DNA of 32,000 bases from assembly GCA_030149205.1 (NCBI GenBank), contig JASBSB010000001.1:390001-422000 (forward strand), read 5' to 3'. A program made the position numbers and the translations under genes. The first letter of the stretch is position 1. The number at the start of each line of letters is the position of its first letter. The notes under the pieces were generated by a model. That model saw only the letters and a list, made by a program, of their open reading frames with translations. It did not search any database and was not told the DNA's origin. Positions 5,348-15,715 of this stretch are shown here, piece after piece. Source of the DNA: Candidatus Heimdallarchaeota archaeon (GTDB lineage Archaea; Asgardarchaeota; Heimdallarchaeia; Heimdallarchaeales; Kariarchaeaceae).

Positions 5348-6403
5348 TTATCCAAAAAATGAATCCAATGATGTTTGACTCCTTAAAATTTCGATTTCTC
5401 TTGCTGTTTTAAAAATTAAAGGTTTATGTCTTGCTTCAGAAAACCCTCGTTCCTCTACAAGAAACTTAAGGATTTTTTCTGGATCATATTCATGAAATTC
5501 CACACTCACACCTTTCTTAACATTCGGATTTAAAAAAATTTCTCGAATCTCTTCATAGGGAACCTCTACCTCTTTAATTCTATCCACATTTTTCTGAATA
5601 GATTCAAAGCTTCCATACTCTTTGATATATTTAAATGCAGTTTTAGGGCCAACCTTTTTAAAACCCCCTGGGTTAAAATCAGAACCAAGAAGAACCCCTA
5701 AATCTATCAGCTGTTCCTTGGTAATTTGCAATCCATCCAATAAATCTCTTAGATTAATTTCCTCAGGGCTAATTGTTATAACTTTCCCCCCAGGAAGATT
5801 TCGTTTCCCACTCAAATTTAGATTTCTTACCAAAGTCGGAGCTCCAAATAATAATGCGTCATAGTCCTGAGATGCTGTTGCATGAGCTATTCCCTCTATT
5901 GTTAACATTGCTGCTTGAGCTTCACCCTCTCCCGGGGCTTGTACAACTGGAATACCCATTGCTTCTAACAATTTTTTTGAATCATCAACCATTTCGGGAG
6001 TAAGTCTGGAGAGTCTCTGTCCCATTTTTTTTGCTCTTATCAGGTCACCCTCTTTCATTGCCTTTTCGTACTCTTTTTCAGCTATTTTTTTTTGTTTTGA
6101 CCTATTTTCAATCTCCTGATGTTTTAAGGGATGAGATTCACCATCAAATACATAAACTGGTTTTATACCTTTTTGAAGAAGTTGTGAATTTCTTGTAAGT
6201 AAGCCTATTAAATGTGAAGTGACTCTTCCTTCGTGGTCTGTCAATGTTTGACCTGTCTGATCCCTTATAGTTGAGAGAAATTGATATAGAACATTAAATG
6301 CATCAAAGGCCATAATTCTATCTTTAAACTCTTCCAAATTCCTTTCTTTCTTGAATGGAATATTTGACTCATCCAAGAGAGCGGAAAGATTCTTTACACC
6401 CAC
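5348..6403 (-). CDS. fen: Flap endonuclease 1 (archaeal FEN1) with C-terminal PCNA-binding PIP box
   Basis: MGVK start, AFDAFNVLYQFL, TSHLIGL, PVYVFDG, QAPGEGEAQAA, SQDYDALLFGAP, LGSDFNPGG and terminal QTSLDSFFG (5354..5377). Confidence 0.97.
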   Translation of the reverse strand: MGVKNLSALLDESNIPFKKERNLEEFKDRIMAFDAFNVLYQFLSTIRDQTGQTLTDHEGRVTSHLIGLLTRNSQLLQKGIKPVYVFDGESHPLKHQEIENRSKQKKIAEKEYEKAMKEGDLIRAKKMGQRLSRLTPEMVDDSKKLLEAMGIPVVQAPGEGEAQAAMLTIEGIAHATASQDYDALLFGAPTLVRNLNLSGKRNLPGGKVITISPEEINLRDLLDGLQITKEQLIDLGVLLGSDFNPGGFKKVGPKTAFKYIKEYGSFESIQKNVDRIKEVEVPYEEIREIFLNPNVKKGVSVEFHEYDPEKILKFLVEERGFSEARHKPLIFKTAREIEILRSQTSLDSFFG

Positions 6404-6491
6404 ACCATAAGATTTTTCCCTTAGTTAATAACTTATCAATGGACGATTGAACTCTTGTTACTGCAGTTGAACTGCTCTTTGACTTTTAATG

Positions 6492-7433
6492 TTAATCTGA
6501 AATTACATCAACTTGAATCCCATTTTGCTCCGATTTTATTGTTAATGTGGGAAGTACCCAGTTTGTGTACCAGTTCTCAATACGTTTTACACGTTTTTCA
6601 ATTTCATCAACAGTTGGTTGGTTTAGAACACATTTAACAGTACATAAACTACATGCAAAATGTTTTTCAAAATATTTGAAACATCTGTCAAAATCAATTT
6701 TATAATCAACTGATGGAATGACTTGCAATGGGAATGGATAATCTCTATTTGTTATTGCTGAGACTGGGCAATTACCAACACAATATTTACACCGAGCACA
6801 AAAAGCAGAAATACCACGATCTATTGGTTGGTCTATTTCTATTTCTGCATTTATTGAAATTGCTGATAACCTTACCAGTGAACCAAATTTAAAGTCGATA
6901 AACAACCCTGTTCTACCCTTCTCTCCCAACCCAGCCTTATATGCTAAAGGACTAAAAAGCAAAAAGTGATTATCGAACCTATCACCTAACGGATGATGTC
7001 CCCATACATCATATCCTAAAGATTTCAATTTAGAAGTTAATTTAAGAGTTTTATCTCCAGCCTCAGCATAGGCATGTAAAATTTCTGTTGCTGATTCTAA
7101 AGAAGGAGCAGAGTTCATCCTAGAATAATCTTGCTTTGTTACCAAAACTATCACTTTCGAATTCACAAATCTATCAGACTCAGAAACTAAAAATACTTCT
7201 TCTTTAGATATCTCAGTCACTCCAAATCTTTTAACTCCTACTTCTTCTAGTAGTTCATTTAATTCTTGTCGTTCAAGAACTCGCTTGAGTCTTCTTGGGT
7301 TTTCAAGATTAAGTAAATCTAAGTTTTTTTGTTGATTTATCAATCGAGCCCTTAGCCTTTTTTGCTCGTCTGTTACAGTAGTCCCACGTGGTTTTATTTT
7401 AGAAAGTCGTTCCTGATTAGCGGGATTTAACAT
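6492..7433 (-). CDS. QueG/reductive-dehalogenase-like 2x[4Fe-4S] protein (putative cobalamin-dependent reductase)
   Basis: AYKAGLGEKGRTGL, FGSLVRLSAI, CxxCxxCxxxCP (CARCKYCVGNCP) and a second Cx9CxxCxxxC cluster. No Tat RRxFLK signal is visible. Confidence 0.75.
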   Translation of the reverse strand: MLNPANQERLSKIKPRGTTVTDEQKRLRARLINQQKNLDLLNLENPRRLKRVLERQELNELLEEVGVKRFGVTEISKEEVFLVSESDRFVNSKVIVLVTKQDYSRMNSAPSLESATEILHAYAEAGDKTLKLTSKLKSLGYDVWGHHPLGDRFDNHFLLFSPLAYKAGLGEKGRTGLFIDFKFGSLVRLSAISINAEIEIDQPIDRGISAFCARCKYCVGNCPVSAITNRDYPFPLQVIPSVDYKIDFDRCFKYFEKHFACSLCTVKCVLNQPTVDEIEKRVKRIENWYTNWVLPTLTIKSEQNGIQVDVISD

Positions 7434-8127: not shown

Positions 8128-8217
8128 TGGACTGAGCGGGATTTTCGAGATTTATCTTTTCGAACCCGCGGCTGCTAGTATGCGAAACTAGCACTCTACC
8201 AACTGAGTTATCAGCCC
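8128..8217 (-). tRNA. tRNA-Ala (anticodon CGC) with a 17-nt intron at 59/60; CCA not encoded
   Basis: Full cloverleaf: acceptor GGGCTGA/TCAGTCC with G3:U70 and A73 (Ala identity), D stem ACTC/GAGT, anticodon stem CTAGT/ACTAG with loop TTCGCAT, T stem GCGGG/CCCGC. Mature length is 73 nt after intron removal. Confidence 0.96.
8142..8158 (-). other. BHB tRNA intron in the T-loop (59/60)
   Basis: GCGGG-TTCG-AAA-AGA-TAAA-TCT-CGAA-AAT-CCCGC forms a 4-bp central helix TTCG/CGAA with two 3-nt bulges. Canonical cleavage restores the T-loop TTCGAAT. Confidence 0.93.
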
Positions 8218-8361
8218 ATTAATCTACCTCTTTTGTGTCTATTTTGAACATTCCCATAACAATCGAAATTCTCAGTGAATTGAGATAAATTATTTTCAAA
8301 ATCAATGATTCATTATTTAGAGATTGGTGAGATTTAAAATCAATGAAACACGGTGTGGAGT

Positions 8362-9408
8362 ATGGTAACTCAAGCTGAGATGAACCTAATCACAGGAGTT
8401 TCATTCATTGTTATAGGTGCGTTATTCAAACTTAAATCAAGGAACAATTTATTCAATAAAGGAGATTCTTGGGCATATTTCGCAATTTTTCATGGGATTG
8501 ATGAAGCTTTTGATTCTTTGAAAAATTATTCTATTTTTTCATCTGTTAAACTCTGGTTTGAAAAGGGCGAAATAATTTTCTTTGCTCTTTCAGCAATTTT
8601 TCTAATAATTGGAACATTGATAGTATTCGACATAATCCCACCAAAGCATGAGCTTGAGCTCGGGTTGATATTTCAAAGTCCATTTGTCTTGTTGGTCTTA
8701 ATTGCTAATGAAACAACAATAGACGTAATTGAAACAGCAAGAGTTTCAATAGGTGGATTTGAGTTTAGTTTAATTGCTCTTAGTTTTGGAGTGATCCCGA
8801 CAATTCCTTTGATAATTGCTCTGCTAATAAATTTCCTCCAAACTAGACGCAAATTCAAAACTATTGGGAACACAAAAATAATTGGATATGTGATAGTTTC
8901 GATGATGCTTACAGCTTATGCGTTTTCTGAACTCTATGCAAGTACCAATAATAATTTTCTGCTTTTAGAAATATTTGCAATTGCAGTAGTTCTTCTTTTC
9001 CCTGTTGAGTATAATCTTTCTGGAGAGAGTGGGGTACAACTATTTGTCCTTTATCACAAAAGTGGAATTCCTGTAACTTCCATACACTTTAATACGAGTA
9101 TAGACAGAGATACTGTTAATCTTGTGACCTCATTTTTGTCAGCAATAAAAACCTTAGTTGAAAATGAACTTGAGCTAGGGGAATTACAAGATATTCAGAC
9201 TGATAAGGGAACTTTGGTGTTAGTTCAATTAGGGGAGTTCATTTTAGCAACTCTCACATCAAGTTCTCCGAAAAAAATCAAAGAAAAATTGTTTCAAATC
9301 TCTGACACTCTTTCTTTAACTCTCAAAGACATTAGACCTGAAATAGTTGATTCAGCCAAAATTGATCAAATTGATACAATGATAATAAAACAACTAGAAC
9401 TACAATGA
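8362..9408 (+). CDS. Seven-TM membrane protein fused to a C-terminal longin/roadblock-like domain
   Basis: About seven hydrophobic segments lie in the first ~220 aa. The region from ~9031 (VQLFVLYHKSGIPV...LVTSFLSAIKTL...LGELQDI...FILA) matches the typical Asgard longin pattern. ATG 8362 is preferred over the track's GTG 8353 because GGTG/GGAG lies just upstream. Confidence 0.72.
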   Translation: MVTQAEMNLITGVSFIVIGALFKLKSRNNLFNKGDSWAYFAIFHGIDEAFDSLKNYSIFSSVKLWFEKGEIIFFALSAIFLIIGTLIVFDIIPPKHELELGLIFQSPFVLLVLIANETTIDVIETARVSIGGFEFSLIALSFGVIPTIPLIIALLINFLQTRRKFKTIGNTKIIGYVIVSMMLTAYAFSELYASTNNNFLLLEIFAIAVVLLFPVEYNLSGESGVQLFVLYHKSGIPVTSIHFNTSIDRDTVNLVTSFLSAIKTLVENELELGELQDIQTDKGTLVLVQLGEFILATLTSSSPKKIKEKLFQISDTLSLTLKDIRPEIVDSAKIDQIDTMIIKQLELQ

Positions 9409-9474: not shown

Positions 9475-10107
9475 CTATCTTGCACCTTCTGCAGCATCAA
9501 AGAGAATTGAAGCAGCTAAAATTAGTCTACGATCCAATTTTGCATCTGGTGATACTGTCATTGTATAATTGTCTCTAAGTTTCGCAAGTCGGTTGTATTC
9601 CCCTATCTTGTTTCCGTTAATATCAAATATCTCAAAATGCAGTCTCATAAATATTTGAAGTATTGGTCCAATAATTGGTATTACGGATAGGATTCCGAAT
9701 TTTCGAACAATGGTCTTGAACATAGATTTAGCGCTTGCCCATCCAATAACTTCACCTGATTCTGTCTGAAACTCCCATCTTTCTCTTAACAAACTATGCC
9801 AAAACCTTCTTTTGAGGACTCCAACCATTTCATTATTTTCTAAATCATGAACCCTAAATCTAGCCCAGGCATCTAAGAAGGTCTCATCATAAAGAATAAT
9901 TATTGGATGAGATTTCGTATCTGGATCATCAAAGATAACTACATCCTTATGGAAAAAGAATCTAGCTCTTTTTGCCCAGAATAGTTTTTGATCAGTAGCT
10001 CTATCCTTGATATCATATGCTTCTTGAAACGTAAATAACCTCCTTATACTTTGGGTTACTAACAGTTCATTGAATACTAGTTTTTCTTCTGTTGTTTTTT
10101 CCAACAT
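9475..10107 (-). CDS. LURP-one/phospholipid-scramblase (tubby C-terminal-like) family protein
   Basis: Repeated beta-hairpin pattern (YDIKD...LFWAK; FRVHD...VGVLKRRF; FEIFD..GNKIGEY) and a terminal hydrophobic helix DRRLILAASILFD. Confidence 0.72.
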   Translation of the reverse strand: MLEKTTEEKLVFNELLVTQSIRRLFTFQEAYDIKDRATDQKLFWAKRARFFFHKDVVIFDDPDTKSHPIIILYDETFLDAWARFRVHDLENNEMVGVLKRRFWHSLLRERWEFQTESGEVIGWASAKSMFKTIVRKFGILSVIPIIGPILQIFMRLHFEIFDINGNKIGEYNRLAKLRDNYTMTVSPDAKLDRRLILAASILFDAAEGAR

Positions 10108-10245
10108 TAATCAAATTTCTATTTTTTCAGTTCTTAAATTTTTCCACCACCAAAAATTAGGATGGGTGCTTTCTCAATTTAATTTTACGTTACTTTTTGG
10201 TATATTATAATAAGATATTAATTCTAAGGAGTTTAGATATAATTA

Positions 10246-11091
10246 ATGCCTGAGGGCCCAGAAGTTGAAATTGTTAAAAGAGGGTTGTTAGCAATAAAAA
10301 ACCAGCAAATTTCACAAATAATTGTATCAAACCACCCGAAATACAACCTTATTCAAGATAGACTTTCTCACATCTCAAGGGTTTTAGATATACATAGAAT
10401 TGGAAAATTTTTGATTTGGGAATTTGATTCAAACGTTTTTGCAATTAACCATCTTGGAATGACCGGTATTTGGTCTATTCAGAATACAAAAGAAGAGAGT
10501 AATTTACAAGAACTTGTTTTAAAGAAACATTTCAAACTAGGCTTTCACTGTGATTCTGGGGATTTTTTCATGTTTGAGGATATTCGAACATTTGGTAGAT
10601 TTGAAATTTATAATGATGACCCTAGAAAATTTCATCCAACGTTAGTAAATATGGGACCTGATATCCTTGATAAAAATTTTAGCAATGTTGAATTTTCAAA
10701 ACGTTTGAAAGGAAAGGGGTCAAGGGGGAGATCCGCTGAAATTGGAAATGCTTTGCTCAACCAATCAATAATTGCAGGATGTGGAAATATTTACAAATCA
10801 GAATCATTATTTTTAAGTAACATAGATCCAAGAAGAAAGGTAAACACATTATCTGACACAGAGATGAACAAATTAGGAGAATCACTTCAAATTGTTGCAA
10901 AGAAAGCCTTAGAAGCAGGGGGATCTACAATACGTGATTTTGTTACAGTAGATGGGTATGATGGATTAATGCAGAATGAGTTTAAAATTTACGGGAAAGA
11001 AAATGAGCCTTGCCCAAACTGCCAATCAACTATTATAAAGATTAAGCAAGGAGGGAGATCAACATATTTATGCGCAAAATGTCAAAAATAA
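10246..11091 (+). CDS. mutM: Formamidopyrimidine-DNA glycosylase/AP lyase (Fpg)
   Basis: N-terminal catalytic MPEGPEV, HLGMTG, FEDIRTFG, H2TH motif LLNQSIIAGCGNIYKSESLF, GGSTIRDF loop, and C4 zinc finger CPNC...GGRSTYLCAKCQ. Confidence 0.93.
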   Translation: MPEGPEVEIVKRGLLAIKNQQISQIIVSNHPKYNLIQDRLSHISRVLDIHRIGKFLIWEFDSNVFAINHLGMTGIWSIQNTKEESNLQELVLKKHFKLGFHCDSGDFFMFEDIRTFGRFEIYNDDPRKFHPTLVNMGPDILDKNFSNVEFSKRLKGKGSRGRSAEIGNALLNQSIIAGCGNIYKSESLFLSNIDPRRKVNTLSDTEMNKLGESLQIVAKKALEAGGSTIRDFVTVDGYDGLMQNEFKIYGKENEPCPNCQSTIIKIKQGGRSTYLCAKCQK

Positions 11092-11152: not shown

Positions 11153-11587
11153 ATGGTTTTAGATAGTCGATCCATTTATCCCATTTTTTTGGGTATTTCT
11201 GTAATTGCCATTATTAACCATTGGCCACTTTTATTTTACCCATTAACTCTTCTTGTTTTTATCCCCATGCTAGTCAATGTATTTACAATGAAGTCTAATT
11301 ACAGGTACAACCTTAAAATTATAATTTATATTATACTGACTGATGGTGCTTTAATGCTTTATCTAACTTTGACACTCCCGGCATTCGGTCTGTTTTTTGT
11401 TGTAATACCTGTATTCTATTGGATAGTGTTAATAATATTTTATTACACGATTAAGAGGGAGGTTAAGATAATTTCAAGACCCATATTTACTATGAATGAT
11501 GATGATGCTTACAGAGCAAGAAAAGCGATGATAACCAGACATCCTGAGGACATTATAAACATCCAAAAATACAAAAAATTCAGCTAA
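11153..11587 (+). CDS. Hypothetical membrane protein (about 3-4 TM)
   Basis: 144-aa ORF with hydrophobic segments. It overlaps the convergent ORF by 4 nt. Confidence 0.65.
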   Translation: MVLDSRSIYPIFLGISVIAIINHWPLLFYPLTLLVFIPMLVNVFTMKSNYRYNLKIIIYIILTDGALMLYLTLTLPAFGLFFVVIPVFYWIVLIIFYYTIKREVKIISRPIFTMNDDDAYRARKAMITRHPEDIINIQKYKKFS

Positions 11588-12912
11588 AACCACGGGTGCA
11601 AAATCTGTTGGTTTAACTCATTTACGTAACGAACAGCATATGGGATAAATTGGAGCATCCGCAATTCTATTGACCATATTTTACCCTTCTCTTTTATATA
11701 AAATATATTTTTTTGATCTGGATAAGTGTTGACCAATTTATGTATCCATCCAATAAAACTAAAACTTCCATCTGAATACCTCGGTTGATTTATCAGTCTA
11801 CCCTGAGCATCTCTTTCTTCTAAGATTAATTCATCATCAAGTTCTTTTGAAATTTGTATTAGGATTGCATCGAGCCTATTTATAACTGCAAGGTCCCTAT
11901 ACAATAGAGAATATTGGAACAGTGAATTGAGGCTGTTTAAGCTATTCTCTACCCATTTTTTATATCCGTATCTTGGTCCATCAGGTTTGTTGTTGCTGCG
12001 TTTTAAAATGGTTCCAAAATGTTTAATCTGGTAATTAATGAATCCGTCCAATGTCATTTCTTCTTGTGTGATTCCTCCAAATCTATATCTAGCCCAGGGG
12101 GTTAGATTGTATGCAGTCTTTTTCGGGTTGAAGGTGAAATTTGGAACATTGAAATATGTCAAATAGATCTCTAAGTTCTTGTATAGTTCATATGCAAATT
12201 TTAATTCAATTCCCAAAACCCGTCGAAAGATTCGGGTGTCACTTAATAAATGAACAACAACATCATCGAAAGGTGAATTAGTCACACGTTTGAGCTCTTC
12301 AGTTTGATCATATCGTAAACACACATAGCCTACAAACATGAAAATCCAAATTGACATTTTACTTTCGATTTGTTTATCATTTATAGATTTGAGATAGTTG
12401 GTGAAAATTTGTTTGTAGTCAATTGTATCCCTCAACAAGAGGTATTCACTTTCTAGTGCTGTGACTTTAGCTACCATTTTTTCAAATTGAAAGGTTGGTA
12501 CTCTTACATCACCTCGACCATCTGCTTGTAAGGCTAAAGAAAGTTCATCTTCACCCATGTTAATTTCTTTGATCATTTTGTTTAAAAACCATAATTGACC
12601 GTTGAATCCCTCGGAAATTACATCTTTGACAAAATCATTAAAACTAATCAATGGGAAAGGTATTGAAAAAAAAGAACCAAATAAGACTGGTAGAGAATCT
12701 ATTAGTGAATTAATGGTTGGATAAAACTTGGTCTTCGTTCGTCTAATATTAAGCTTAACTTTTTGTCTTTTCTCCCGGATTTTTTTATTCTTCTGAATCT
12801 CCCTCAATTCATCCTCTCCAATCTCATCAATGGCATTAGACTCAGGTTTCAAATCATTATCATTTGACTCTTCTGAACTTGAGTTAAAGTTTAGATTGGG
12901 AGGATTAGACAA
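11584..12912 (-). CDS. Hypothetical protein (442 aa, acidic then basic N-terminus), probably co-transcribed with the upstream Hsp70-like gene
   Basis: Long ORF. The TTG start is preceded by AGGTG at SD spacing and lies 10 nt from the upstream stop. No family was recognised. Confidence 0.75.
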   Translation of the reverse strand: MSNPPNLNFNSSSEESNDNDLKPESNAIDEIGEDELREIQKNKKIREKRQKVKLNIRRTKTKFYPTINSLIDSLPVLFGSFFSIPFPLISFNDFVKDVISEGFNGQLWFLNKMIKEINMGEDELSLALQADGRGDVRVPTFQFEKMVAKVTALESEYLLLRDTIDYKQIFTNYLKSINDKQIESKMSIWIFMFVGYVCLRYDQTEELKRVTNSPFDDVVVHLLSDTRIFRRVLGIELKFAYELYKNLEIYLTYFNVPNFTFNPKKTAYNLTPWARYRFGGITQEEMTLDGFINYQIKHFGTILKRSNNKPDGPRYGYKKWVENSLNSLNSLFQYSLLYRDLAVINRLDAILIQISKELDDELILEERDAQGRLINQPRYSDGSFSFIGWIHKLVNTYPDQKNIFYIKEKGKIWSIELRMLQFIPYAVRYVNELNQQILHPWF

Positions 12913-12922
12913 GTTTATGCAC

Positions 12923-15715
12923 CTAAATTATAGGGAAAAGTTCAATGTAATCATTCTGAGATGGACTAACATCCTTTTCTGAGACTGTAATACAAAGCCA
13001 ACCGTTATCACGAACACCTATTCTAATTACCGGGTTCTCTAAATCTTTGGTGTCTACAATTAAAGGAAAGTCAAGGACTGGTTCGAAATCAAAAAACTCT
13101 GTTGTTAACAACTCAGTCTTTAATATATTTATATCATTTTCTTGAATTTTTGAGTAGTTTAACCTCTTGATCCATAAGTCCAAAATTAAGCTATGAAACT
13201 CAAAATTCTTTTTAACCTCAATTTTCTTTACTTCATTGTAAATCCCTTCTTTCTCGTCAATTAACGGAAGAAGACTTAGCATTCCCGAAGATGCTGTGTT
13301 TGTTTGAATGGAATCTCCAGGATTTGAGATTATATTTTGGCCATTCCCAAAGATTCCAGCTCCAAGAGAAAGGTGGTTCTTGTTATCCTCAACAATTAAT
13401 TTCACTTTTTTATCTAATAAATTGTAAATATATTCTTGAAACAATGGCCAGTTTGCGCCTCCTCCAGAGAGAATAACTTGATTTAGCTTTTCGAGTTCAA
13501 AATTTTCTTCAGAAATTATCGCAAGTAAATCTCGCATTAAGAATTGTAATGCTATAAAAACTGAATTCTCTTCATCAATGATCACTTCTGATTTGTCTTT
13601 GGGTTCCCCAAGGATTTTAATTTTTAAAGGGCTTTCTGTGTATTTTTCTTCAGTTAGTTCAAATTCTTTAGATAAGGTCTGTTTAATTTCTGAAAACACC
13701 TTGTAGTCGCAGTATGATCTATTTATGTTTAATTTTGAAAGATGTGTCGAAATTTCATTGTCGTAAGAATTCATTCCTTTTCCTAATGAAAGAGACACGG
13801 AACTTATTGGAGCCTCTTCTACCCCTTCTAACAAACTATCAATTTTTCTCTTTCTACTTTTATTGCTAGGAATATCAACCAATGAACCAGTAATATGAGT
13901 GTCTCCGAGGTCTAACACTATTGATTTGCCTTCCTCCTTGTATGCACGAAAGGATGCCAAAGTTGAAGCTAAACTAGCTTCCAATCCATAGATTTGATTA
14001 AACCCAAATTCAGTGAGGAAGTTATGAAACCATCGTCTGTATTCTACAGTGGTATGTTTCTCAAAGGTAAAAGTTGCAACTTGAACTGAATATTTTAACT
14101 CGGCTAAGATCCTTTTGATCACCTTTCTAAGAAAATCCTCAGTAGCCTTTCTTGGAGTTATTGTTAAATTTCTTACTCTAATACTATCTAAGGAGTCTTC
14201 TTGTATTAGTTGTTTTAAATTAAACATAGTTAGGTCACTGTTAACCACTTCAGAATTTTCCATTGAAATTTCGTCTCCAACTAAAAATTGGTCAGGGGTT
14301 ATGTAGGATACTACAGTGGGTTGAACAATATGTAAAAGTTCATGACCACAATCAGAGGGGACAATGGAAATTTTGGTTTCTGTATTCCCAAAATCTATCC
14401 CCAATGTGCAACACCCATGGGGTGTTCTTCCTTGGAGAGGTTCACTTTCCTTTATATCAAATACGTTAAAAGACCTACCGTGATGTAGATCTGTTAATAG
14501 TTTTAGTGTTTCTAGGATTCGTTTTTGAAGTCCAGATAGTGAACTTATCAGAGTCTGGAGTGAGTCATCAATTAAATGCGTATGTTGATTTAGTGGAATC
14601 AAAAACATCGCCAGGGTATCCATATCAACAGAATAATTTTGCCCCTTGCTTTTGATTGTTATATACAGACCATCCTCATCCATTAAGAACGAGGATACTG
14701 AATTTGCATGTGCAACAATTTCTGCAAGAAGGATTCCATTTGTGGAATAAACTGGGATATGAAGCTTTCCTGTGAAATTTGAATATCTAACTCTTTCATC
14801 ATAAATTGCTAGATTTAGCTCCCTATCAACTAAATTAAACCTACCACGATCTACAAACTCCATATCAGGAATTCGATCAGGCCTTGTATATACTATTTGA
14901 GTGACATTTATTTCAACAAACTTTGATTGACGGTCAGCTTCTGATAAAAATTCAAACTCTCCGGTCTTTTTATCCTCTTTTGTTATTGCCAAATTTAGAA
15001 TCCAAGAGACACCATCCCACCCATTTTCTCCTAGGTATTCACTTAAAAGTTCGAAGAAGTAACGACTCTCTTTTGATTCTGGTCTCCAATCCTCTTTGTT
15101 GAGAATTTTCATTAATTCACTGACAAAGGGGAAAGGGTATTCTAAGACACTCTTCCAGAGAGTATTAAAATCTTTCTTACTCAGTAATTCAGCAATTGTT
15201 GGTTTTGAGACTCCAACATATCTTAATCTTTTTTTCTTAAATAATTTTTCTGACAGTTTACCTGCCCTTTCGAATATCAAACTTCCCAGTGATGGGTCAA
15301 GAGTCTGTAAATAATGTTCAAGCTCTACAAGATCAGGATCAATCTCCAGGAGTAAATCAATTTCATCAAGCATGACTAATGTCGCTGACAACGTTGATCG
15401 TTTGATCTTATCCCAGTTTGCTTCTATCGTTTCCTTTACAAACGATTTGAGACTAGGGAGAGGGTGACTTATCCATAGGTCCAATACCTGTTCTCTTTTA
15501 AAAGATGGCAAAAATCTCTGTACGTGATCTAAAGCCAGCTTTCGCACTTCATCAGACTCATGATGATCAATTATTTCAAATATTTGTACTAAAGTTGTCT
15601 CATTTTTGGATCTCAGCCAATCTTTAAAGAGGTCAGAGAATGCGATTAATTCCTCTTCAGTTGGGTTCTCGATATATCTGGAGTTTAATAGTTCATAGGT
15701 TTCTGTTTGTTCTAT
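12923..15715 (-). CDS. Large multidomain protein: helical/HEAT-like N-terminus, degenerate WD40-like segment, atypical Hsp70/actin-fold ATPase domain
   Basis: Hsp70-like motifs LGIDFGNTETK, LEASLA (EPTAAA position), IVLDLGDT, VILSGGGANWP and LSLGAG. The frame stays open 56 codons upstream of the track's GTG (15547) to ATA 15715, which sits 7 nt behind GAGAGGAG. The start codon is uncertain. Confidence 0.75.
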   Translation of the reverse strand: MEQTETYELLNSRYIENPTEEELIAFSDLFKDWLRSKNETTLVQIFEIIDHHESDEVRKLALDHVQRFLPSFKREQVLDLWISHPLPSLKSFVKETIEANWDKIKRSTLSATLVMLDEIDLLLEIDPDLVELEHYLQTLDPSLGSLIFERAGKLSEKLFKKKRLRYVGVSKPTIAELLSKKDFNTLWKSVLEYPFPFVSELMKILNKEDWRPESKESRYFFELLSEYLGENGWDGVSWILNLAITKEDKKTGEFEFLSEADRQSKFVEINVTQIVYTRPDRIPDMEFVDRGRFNLVDRELNLAIYDERVRYSNFTGKLHIPVYSTNGILLAEIVAHANSVSSFLMDEDGLYITIKSKGQNYSVDMDTLAMFLIPLNQHTHLIDDSLQTLISSLSGLQKRILETLKLLTDLHHGRSFNVFDIKESEPLQGRTPHGCCTLGIDFGNTETKISIVPSDCGHELLHIVQPTVVSYITPDQFLVGDEISMENSEVVNSDLTMFNLKQLIQEDSLDSIRVRNLTITPRKATEDFLRKVIKRILAELKYSVQVATFTFEKHTTVEYRRWFHNFLTEFGFNQIYGLEASLASTLASFRAYKEEGKSIVLDLGDTHITGSLVDIPSNKSRKRKIDSLLEGVEEAPISSVSLSLGKGMNSYDNEISTHLSKLNINRSYCDYKVFSEIKQTLSKEFELTEEKYTESPLKIKILGEPKDKSEVIIDEENSVFIALQFLMRDLLAIISEENFELEKLNQVILSGGGANWPLFQEYIYNLLDKKVKLIVEDNKNHLSLGAGIFGNGQNIISNPGDSIQTNTASSGMLSLLPLIDEKEGIYNEVKKIEVKKNFEFHSLILDLWIKRLNYSKIQENDINILKTELLTTEFFDFEPVLDFPLIVDTKDLENPVIRIGVRDNGWLCITVSEKDVSPSQNDYIELFPII

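Follow-up and report, generated by a model that had tools for sequence, protein, structure and literature searches.

A single gene of a Heimdallarchaeal genome fuses a seven-helix (7TM) membrane domain, likely a remote homolog of a sensor found in bacterial kinases and cyclases, with a cytoplasmic longin domain, a fold on which small GTPases dock in eukaryotes. The combination has the look of a receptor of bacterial type that was given an output of eukaryotic type. The gene lies in a window of 32,000 nucleotides (the whole stretch of DNA analyzed, G000:C4:390001-422000) from a genome of 3.3 Mb that is 93.5% complete, and its features are collected in Table 1. The reading frame opens with the ATG at 8362, which has a GGTG 7–10 nt upstream; an alternative GTG at 8353 would add three residues, and the homologs begin at the equivalent ATG. 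The gene stands alone, between a divergent tRNA-like gene upstream and a convergent gene downstream, and scans for promoters and terminators around it stayed at chance level.

Table 1 Features of the 7TM-longin gene and its product. Nucleotides are numbered in the window and residues in the 348-residue protein.
Feature	Window position (nt)	Strand	Residues	Remark
Whole gene	8362..9408	+	348 aa (P0001)	7TM sensor-type domain and cytoplasmic longin domain
Seven-helix membrane domain	8371..8997	+	4-212	N terminus out, C terminus in
Membrane helices (AlphaFold2)			4-26, 35-54, 57-88, 94-114, 137-164, 170-192, 198-212	
TM2 motif F40-x3-H44-G45-x-D47-E48	8479..8505	+		F, H, G and E common to bacterial sensors
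TM3 E67 and E70	8560..8571	+		part of the His/acidic set
E190, end of TM6	8929-8931	+		part of the His/acidic set
E203, TM7	8968-8970	+		part of the His/acidic set
Longin domain	9031..9405	+	224-348	

The tRNA-like gene (window 8128-8217, minus strand, 145 bp upstream) carries the anticodon CGC (Ala) and a T-loop insertion; it is missed by ARAGORN, and Rfam matches its 5' part weakly (20.7 bits). The neighboring stretches, 5348-7433 (minus strand) and 9475-11091, encode a FEN1-like nuclease and an Fpg/MutM-like glycosylase, both named from sequence, together with a 4Fe-4S protein and a LURP/scramblase-like protein, which have weak Pfam matches. Farther along, 11584-15547 (minus strand) holds two unannotated open reading frames of 442 and 874 residues, the longer one with a weak HSP70-type match at residues 382–467 (E 0.008).

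Pfam returns one sub-threshold match on the 348-residue protein, to Roadblock/LC7 (PF03259, residues 221–298, 12.9 bits for a cut-off of 23), NCBIfam has no family for it, and sequence and profile searches of the PDB gave nothing significant, the best profile match having an E value of 0.24. The 7TM domain found no match by tblastn against plasmids, and word-based protein searches, a method too insensitive here, recovered the query and one homolog only, with none among longer proteins.

The preliminary description of this gene had proposed about seven transmembrane helices, and the AlphaFold2 model contains exactly seven, with a pLDDT of 81 for the whole protein and of 90 (pTM 0.87) for the membrane domain alone. 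Six peaks stand out in the hydropathy plot, to which the polar helix bearing FAIFHGIDE is added, and an outer short helix and a β-hairpin are inserted between TM4 and TM5 (residues 117–136). Among 23 homologs, loops 1 and 5 carry 2.2 and 4.2 Lys/Arg and loop 4 carries 3.2 Asp/Glu; the charges thus place loops 1 and 5 inside and loop 4 outside, with the N terminus out and the C terminus in. This topology puts the longin domain on the cytoplasmic side and the conserved His/acidic residues in the outer half of the bundle.

When compared with known structures by VIA, the membrane domain superimposes over about 200 of 214 residues onto GPCRs of several classes (Z 10.6–12.5, r.m.s. deviation of about 4 Å, 4–14% identity); SID-1 (Z 11.3, 14% identity) and the alkaline ceramidase ACER3 (Z 11.2) tie with them, so that GPCR classes A, adhesion, F and T and the CREST proteins all rank alike, and such scores for helical bundles reflect a shared arrangement and not family membership. 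All the top Foldseek matches are GPCRs, none below an E value of 0.001, as are nearly all the top VIA matches; no microbial rhodopsin is present among the best 50 structural matches, which is compatible with a shared fold. The seven-helix fold and its handedness are those of eukaryotic GPCRs over the whole domain, as they are for ACER3 and SID-1, and the N-out orientation is the same. GPCRs differ in having class motifs, a disulfide bond and a heterotrimeric G protein, whereas the Asgard protein lacks these and carries a fused longin output: it has no DRY, no NPxxY and no cysteine (hence no TM3–ECL2 disulfide), and no PF00503 (G-alpha) match above cut-off is found in the 93.5% complete host genome. 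There is also no conserved lysine in the middle of TM7, where retinal would be bound, and an identity as a microbial rhodopsin or heliorhodopsin was rejected on this ground. Because class motifs, retinal lysine and G-alpha are all missing, the modeled domain is best described as GPCR-shaped, N out, but not a GPCR.

That the protein is directly and orthologously ancestral to a class of eukaryotic GPCRs is accordingly a most improbable reading. The coverage of the whole domain, the orientation and the leading place of GPCRs in both structural searches speak for it; the low identity, the deviation of about 4 Å, the tie between several GPCR classes and CREST proteins, the missing motifs and G-alpha, the insignificant PDB profile matches and the fact that the nearest detectable relatives are bacterial speak against it. 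The earlier statement that there is no evidence of GPCR homology needs refining as regards the fold, which is of the GPCR type, at fold level only; the nearest relatives are bacterial sensors.

Seven polar residues of the domain form a His/acidic set. H44, D47, E48, E67, E70, E190 and E203 are invariant in the closest subfamily (E67 in eight of nine sequences), where seven buried polar residues are kept at about 30% identity, and all are located in the outer half of the bundle. Judging from topology rather than from coordinates, these seven residues would line one candidate pocket. Such a His and carboxylate cluster could also hold a catalytic metal, and, together with the structural tie of SID-1 and ACER3 with GPCRs, it calls for considering a CREST-like intramembrane metalloenzyme, or an ion or proton conduit, regulated by the longin. 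The zinc triad of CREST hydrolases consists of one His in TM2 and two His in TM7. No member of the family has a His in TM7, so the triad cannot form and a CREST enzyme was rejected; moreover, the polar residues occupy the outer half only and trace no path across the membrane, and the bacterial homologs are inputs of kinases and cyclases. The enzyme-or-conduit reading is, on this evidence, quite improbable.

The ancestry of the membrane domain was approached through its TM2 motif. The preliminary description had mentioned an FxxxHGxxE motif in membrane sensor domains of some bacterial kinases and cyclases; the motif is real and marks a likely homology. Scanning GTDB genomes for A-x-F-G-x-x-H-G-x-x-E-W yielded at least 120 loci (L118-L196 among them), and in 73 of the 80 examined the motif lies in TM2 of an N-terminal multi-helix domain. 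The carriers come from Chloroflexota, Planctomycetota, Pseudomonadota, Bacillota and other taxa and include histidine kinases of the HisKA_3, HisKA, PAS and hybrid types as well as GGDEF proteins: by signature, 41 of the 73 are HisKA_3 and six HisKA kinases and three are GGDEF proteins, the remainder being cut off or unclassified. Pfam confirms the kinase in ten of ten carriers tested and has no model over the membrane part. A response regulator gene is found beside 41–43 of these 73. In 27 of them, the neighbors include genes for multiheme cytochromes, NrfC/NrfD or cytochrome b; a tie of the bacterial domain to anaerobic respiration is only a lead, since the loci come mostly from related Chloroflexota and the count has no background rate.

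Profile alignment by hhalign of two of the three groups of the Asgard family, A and B (see below), with the bacterial domain aligns 191 columns collinearly, between TM1 and TM6, with a probability of 95.9% and an E value of 5.5e-9, and the full Asgard alignment performs similarly (95.8%, E 6.9e-9). As the bacterial set had been picked by the motif, the comparison was repeated with the motif masked, which returned the same alignment and register at E 2.5e-4; the region after TM2 alone also kept the register (E 0.0076). The controls reached 0.023 for the reversed profile, 0.05–0.56 for block shuffles and 0.12 for HisKA_7TM. Since the register holds without the motif and the controls range from 0.02 to 0.56, homology of the Asgard membrane domain to the bacterial kinase/cyclase sensor domain is likely, though remote, and on these profile comparisons the bacterial sensors are its nearest detectable relatives. 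A sensor role, as first suggested from the sequence, therefore becomes likely for the Asgard domain as well.

The two domains share the collinear order of the seven helices, a Gly in TM1, the F/H/G/E set in TM2 and S/L in TM3, and the output follows TM7 directly in both; the R-x-x-x-G of the bacterial TM5 is also present in Asgard group B. They differ in their output, a kinase or cyclase in bacteria and a longin in the Asgard proteins, and in their pocket, which is acidic in the latter (E70, E190, E203), whereas in most bacterial proteins an Arg stands at the E70 position and in TM5. For this reason the bacterial ligands probably differ from the Asgard one. In the tree, Asgard and bacterial sequences form separate clades parted by a long branch, from which the direction of transfer is not deducible. 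The bacterial profile gave no match in 400 Asgard genomes, a negative that excludes close members only, because about six candidates per genome were scored and the 348-residue protein's own gene was missed too. HisKA_7TM (PF16927) matches two of 16 family members weakly (best E 1.7e-5), shows up in Atlas features at 0.86–0.87 and has no match in the host genome. A direct derivation from HisKA_7TM is not supported, given the E value of 0.12 noted above and the lack of PF16927 in the host.

The 7TM-longin architecture is conserved. A full HMMER search recovered 15 homologs at 22–38% identity, all with both domains and all but one of 320–360 residues, and the nearest ESM Atlas clusters are Promethearchaeota (Asgard) proteins of 351–383 residues. 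One Logan homolog of 477 residues (P0011), with an unrelated N-terminal part, is probably an assembly chimera. Of 301 Asgard genomes, 38 contain a match to the membrane-part profile, with 34 others of the host's order, two more of its class and one outside; the matched frame is almost always 350–400 residues long, that is, fused to a longin. Every full-length Asgard member examined has a longin output and none a kinase or cyclase.

Three groups appear in the family tree. Group A, which includes the 348-residue protein, has invariant G12, W37, F40, H44, G45, D47, E48, E70, L81, E190 and E203. In group B, H44, E48, E70 and E190 are retained, and TM5 and TM7 contain Arg. Group C, present as one copy per genome in a sister family (the Heimdallarchaeaceae-like subfamily), has lost H44, E70 and E190. 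The group C loci (L009, L011, L014, L019, L023, L026, L029) have a conserved gene order, with a secreted-type protein usually upstream, a UDP-GlcNAc 2-epimerase-like gene (named from a motif) usually downstream and often a TauE-like membrane gene after the latter. Of two other homologs, L239:10222-11358 has an actin gene nearby and L242:9064-10026 adjoins cheR; these are single cases, and neither link is conserved. Within the host genome, F-x3-HG-x2-E near the N terminus is confined to the gene of the 348-residue protein. The host has one divergent paralog (C2:357852-358916); it is devoid of the His motif and is paired in tandem with another 7TM-longin gene, which belongs to a different family (L075:6856-9171 = G000:C2:357852-360170).

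The C-terminal domain has the secondary structure order β-β-α-β-β-β-α-α by DSSP, which is that of a longin, as had been proposed from its sequence pattern. The order is different in the roadblock/LC7 fold (an N-terminal helix, then β-β-α-β-β-β-α), which was rejected because the domain begins with a strand and ends with two helices. It superimposes onto the longins of delta-COP, Ccz1, Trs23, CPLANE and AP mu with Z values of 12–13.4 and an r.m.s. deviation of 2.7–3.0 Å over about 120 residues, and onto the Lokiarchaeal longin 8yqg with a Z of 10.9. G235 in the β1–β2 loop is invariant, and helix 1 carries the motif LV(T/S)(G/S)FLSAI.

Prediction of a homodimer of the longin alone scored 0.61, against 0.00 for the best of three controls; the runs agree on at least 97% of contacts with a pLDDT of at least 83. 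The score passes a mark reached by 20 of 30 solved pairs and one of 23 solved single chains, and this pass may reflect likeness, since similar dimers are already solved. The longin is thus predicted to homodimerize through helix 1 and strand 3 (residues 246–283), with the two helices 1 antiparallel and the sheet continuous, and the conservation of L254, F258, A261 and I262 would be explained by their place in this interface. Mon1-Ccz1 and Trs23-Bet5 form dimers of this kind, with the Rab bound on the paired face of the two helices 1; in Mon1-Ccz1 this face is the main GTPase site (PMC5216073). More broadly, the domain shares with the longin-dimer platforms Mon1-Ccz1, TRAPP Trs23-Bet5, Fuzzy-Inturned, BLOC-3 and Asgard 8yqg the longin fold (Z 10.9–13.0), the predicted pairing through helix 1 and a continuous sheet (compare PMC5216073) and the invariant β1–β2 Gly. 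It differs from them in that each chain carries a single longin, which is attached to a 7TM domain and predicted to pair with its own kind, and an elbow motif like that of Mon1 is not apparent. Conservation of the longin surface is weak (25–34% identity within the subfamily), the conserved residues being mostly fold or dimer positions. In GAP longins such as FLCN, NPRL2 and SMCR8, a GP motif precedes strand 2 and an arginine finger is conserved (PMC12290439). The family has instead a G-x-P with the Pro in only 11 of 25 rows and no alignment column with more than seven Arg in 25; a GAP-type longin was rejected for lack of both features, and the domain is probably not a self-sufficient GAP.

The host encodes about 25 Ras-like small GTPases and 45 longin/roadblock domains, many of the latter fused to TPR-like or membrane domains, including 16 fusions of 6–8 helices with a C-terminal longin. 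Apart from the paralog, the membrane domains of the other host longin fusions do not match this 7TM family. No class I histidine kinase was found in the host; the search recovered two CheA only, plus a few CheY/CheB-like receivers. No GTPase gene adjoins the 348-residue protein's gene, the nearest being about 19 kb and 34 kb off, and none is linked across some 20 homologous loci. As the neighbors vary among homologs, an operon with a GTPase was rejected. Asgard GTPase genes seldom share operons with their regulators, and small GTPases are acted on by longin and roadblock dimers in bacteria through to eukaryotes (PMC10933270).

From the computed folds, topology, conservation and ancestry, and from the predicted dimer, we infer a ligand, a conformational coupling and a GTPase partner. 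The model that we favor, tentatively and at somewhat below an even chance, is a dimeric receptor in which a cationic ligand or proton at the outer site causes TM7 to move the longin, whose dimer recruits or activates a small GTPase. The outer pocket would bind a divalent metal ion, an amine or another basic metabolite, or sense protons, and two copies are predicted to pair through their longins in the core geometry of Mon1-Ccz1 and Trs23-Bet5. Ligand binding would then shift TM7, from which about ten residues lead into strand 1 of the longin, and the altered helix-1 face may recruit one of the roughly 25 GTPases or promote nucleotide exchange. A more specific version, a ligand-gated receptor-GEF in one chain, made of a bacterial-type sensor of GPCR fold whose kinase was replaced by a longin and used by Heimdall-group archaea in place of two-component kinases, to turn on small GTPases at the membrane, is possible though rather unlikely. 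Counting against a receptor-GTPase model are the missing linkage to GTPase genes, the weak conservation of the longin surface, the lack of GAP and elbow motifs and the loss of H44, E70 and E190 in group C. In addition, Asgard longins may be general docking modules, as they are fused to many domains.

A rival reading is a sensor whose longin talks to other longin/roadblock proteins (free longins, TPR-longin proteins or other 7TM-longins) or to CheA/CheY, a GTPase coming in only further downstream or not at all. The 45 longin/roadblock domains of the genome offer many such partners, and the conserved residues on the dimer face would be equally able to heterodimerize. Asgard longins are often fused to two-component domains (Liu et al., 10.1101/2020.10.19.343400). 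CheA is the only kinase type found in the host, and one homolog, a single case, adjoins cheR. The established action of longin/roadblock dimers on small GTPases (PMC10933270), in a host with about 25 of them, weighs on the other side, and we regard this output as rather unlikely. A further reading has the 7TM domain no longer sensing and serving as the membrane anchor of a longin platform, or taking part in membrane remodeling, be it as cargo receptor or as coat adaptor. It fits the best longin matches, which include the coat subunits delta-COP, AP mu and AP sigma, and the loss of the pocket residues in one large subfamily. It does not account for seven buried polar residues kept invariant across a subfamily of about 30% identity, nor for relatives that are signaling inputs, and one or two helices would suffice for an anchor; we hold it to be improbable.

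Prokaryotic 7TM sensors with fused outputs are already known (PMC10760455, PMC5847659). HisKA_7TM and the E. coli proteins DgcT and CdgI (PMC10760455) likewise combine a 7TM input with a fused cytoplasmic output, and the profile comparison of HisKA_7TM with the Asgard domain is not significant. The favored receptor-GTPase model also resembles the actinobacterial conservons, which comprise a sensor kinase, a roadblock protein and a small GTPase (PMC13621833, PMC13343842), and MglA/MglB, in the prokaryotic logic of a membrane sensor, a roadblock/longin platform and a small GTPase. In those systems a kinase-like sensor and a roadblock are encoded by separate genes of an operon, whereas the Asgard sensor and longin form one chain with no linked GTPase. 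The Asgard NPRL2-like longin fusions of Liu et al. (10.1101/2020.10.19.343400) also join longins to prokaryotic signal-transduction domains; the text of that article describes no 7TM-longin fusion. We found no published description of such a fusion or of the motif family, although the architecture may be listed in the Nature article of Liu et al. (2021) or its tables; a 2026 preprint counts '7TM proteins' with the families that Eme or Liu had reported. New at this locus are the likely homology of the 7TM domain to a bacterial sensor that has no Pfam model, the candidate pocket, and a host in which no classical sensor kinases were found.

The family bears on two open questions, the control of the dozens of small GTPases in Asgard archaea and the origin of receptor-to-GTPase signaling, for which it provides a concrete and testable candidate whose origin can be traced: a sensor domain that drives kinases and cyclases in bacteria and is joined to a longin in Heimdall-group archaea. 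With a single chain of 348 residues, a candidate pocket and a small soluble output domain, both ligand and partner are directly testable. If the receptor-GEF reading is true, prokaryotes would have a functioning forerunner or counterpart of receptor-to-G-protein signaling in this protein.
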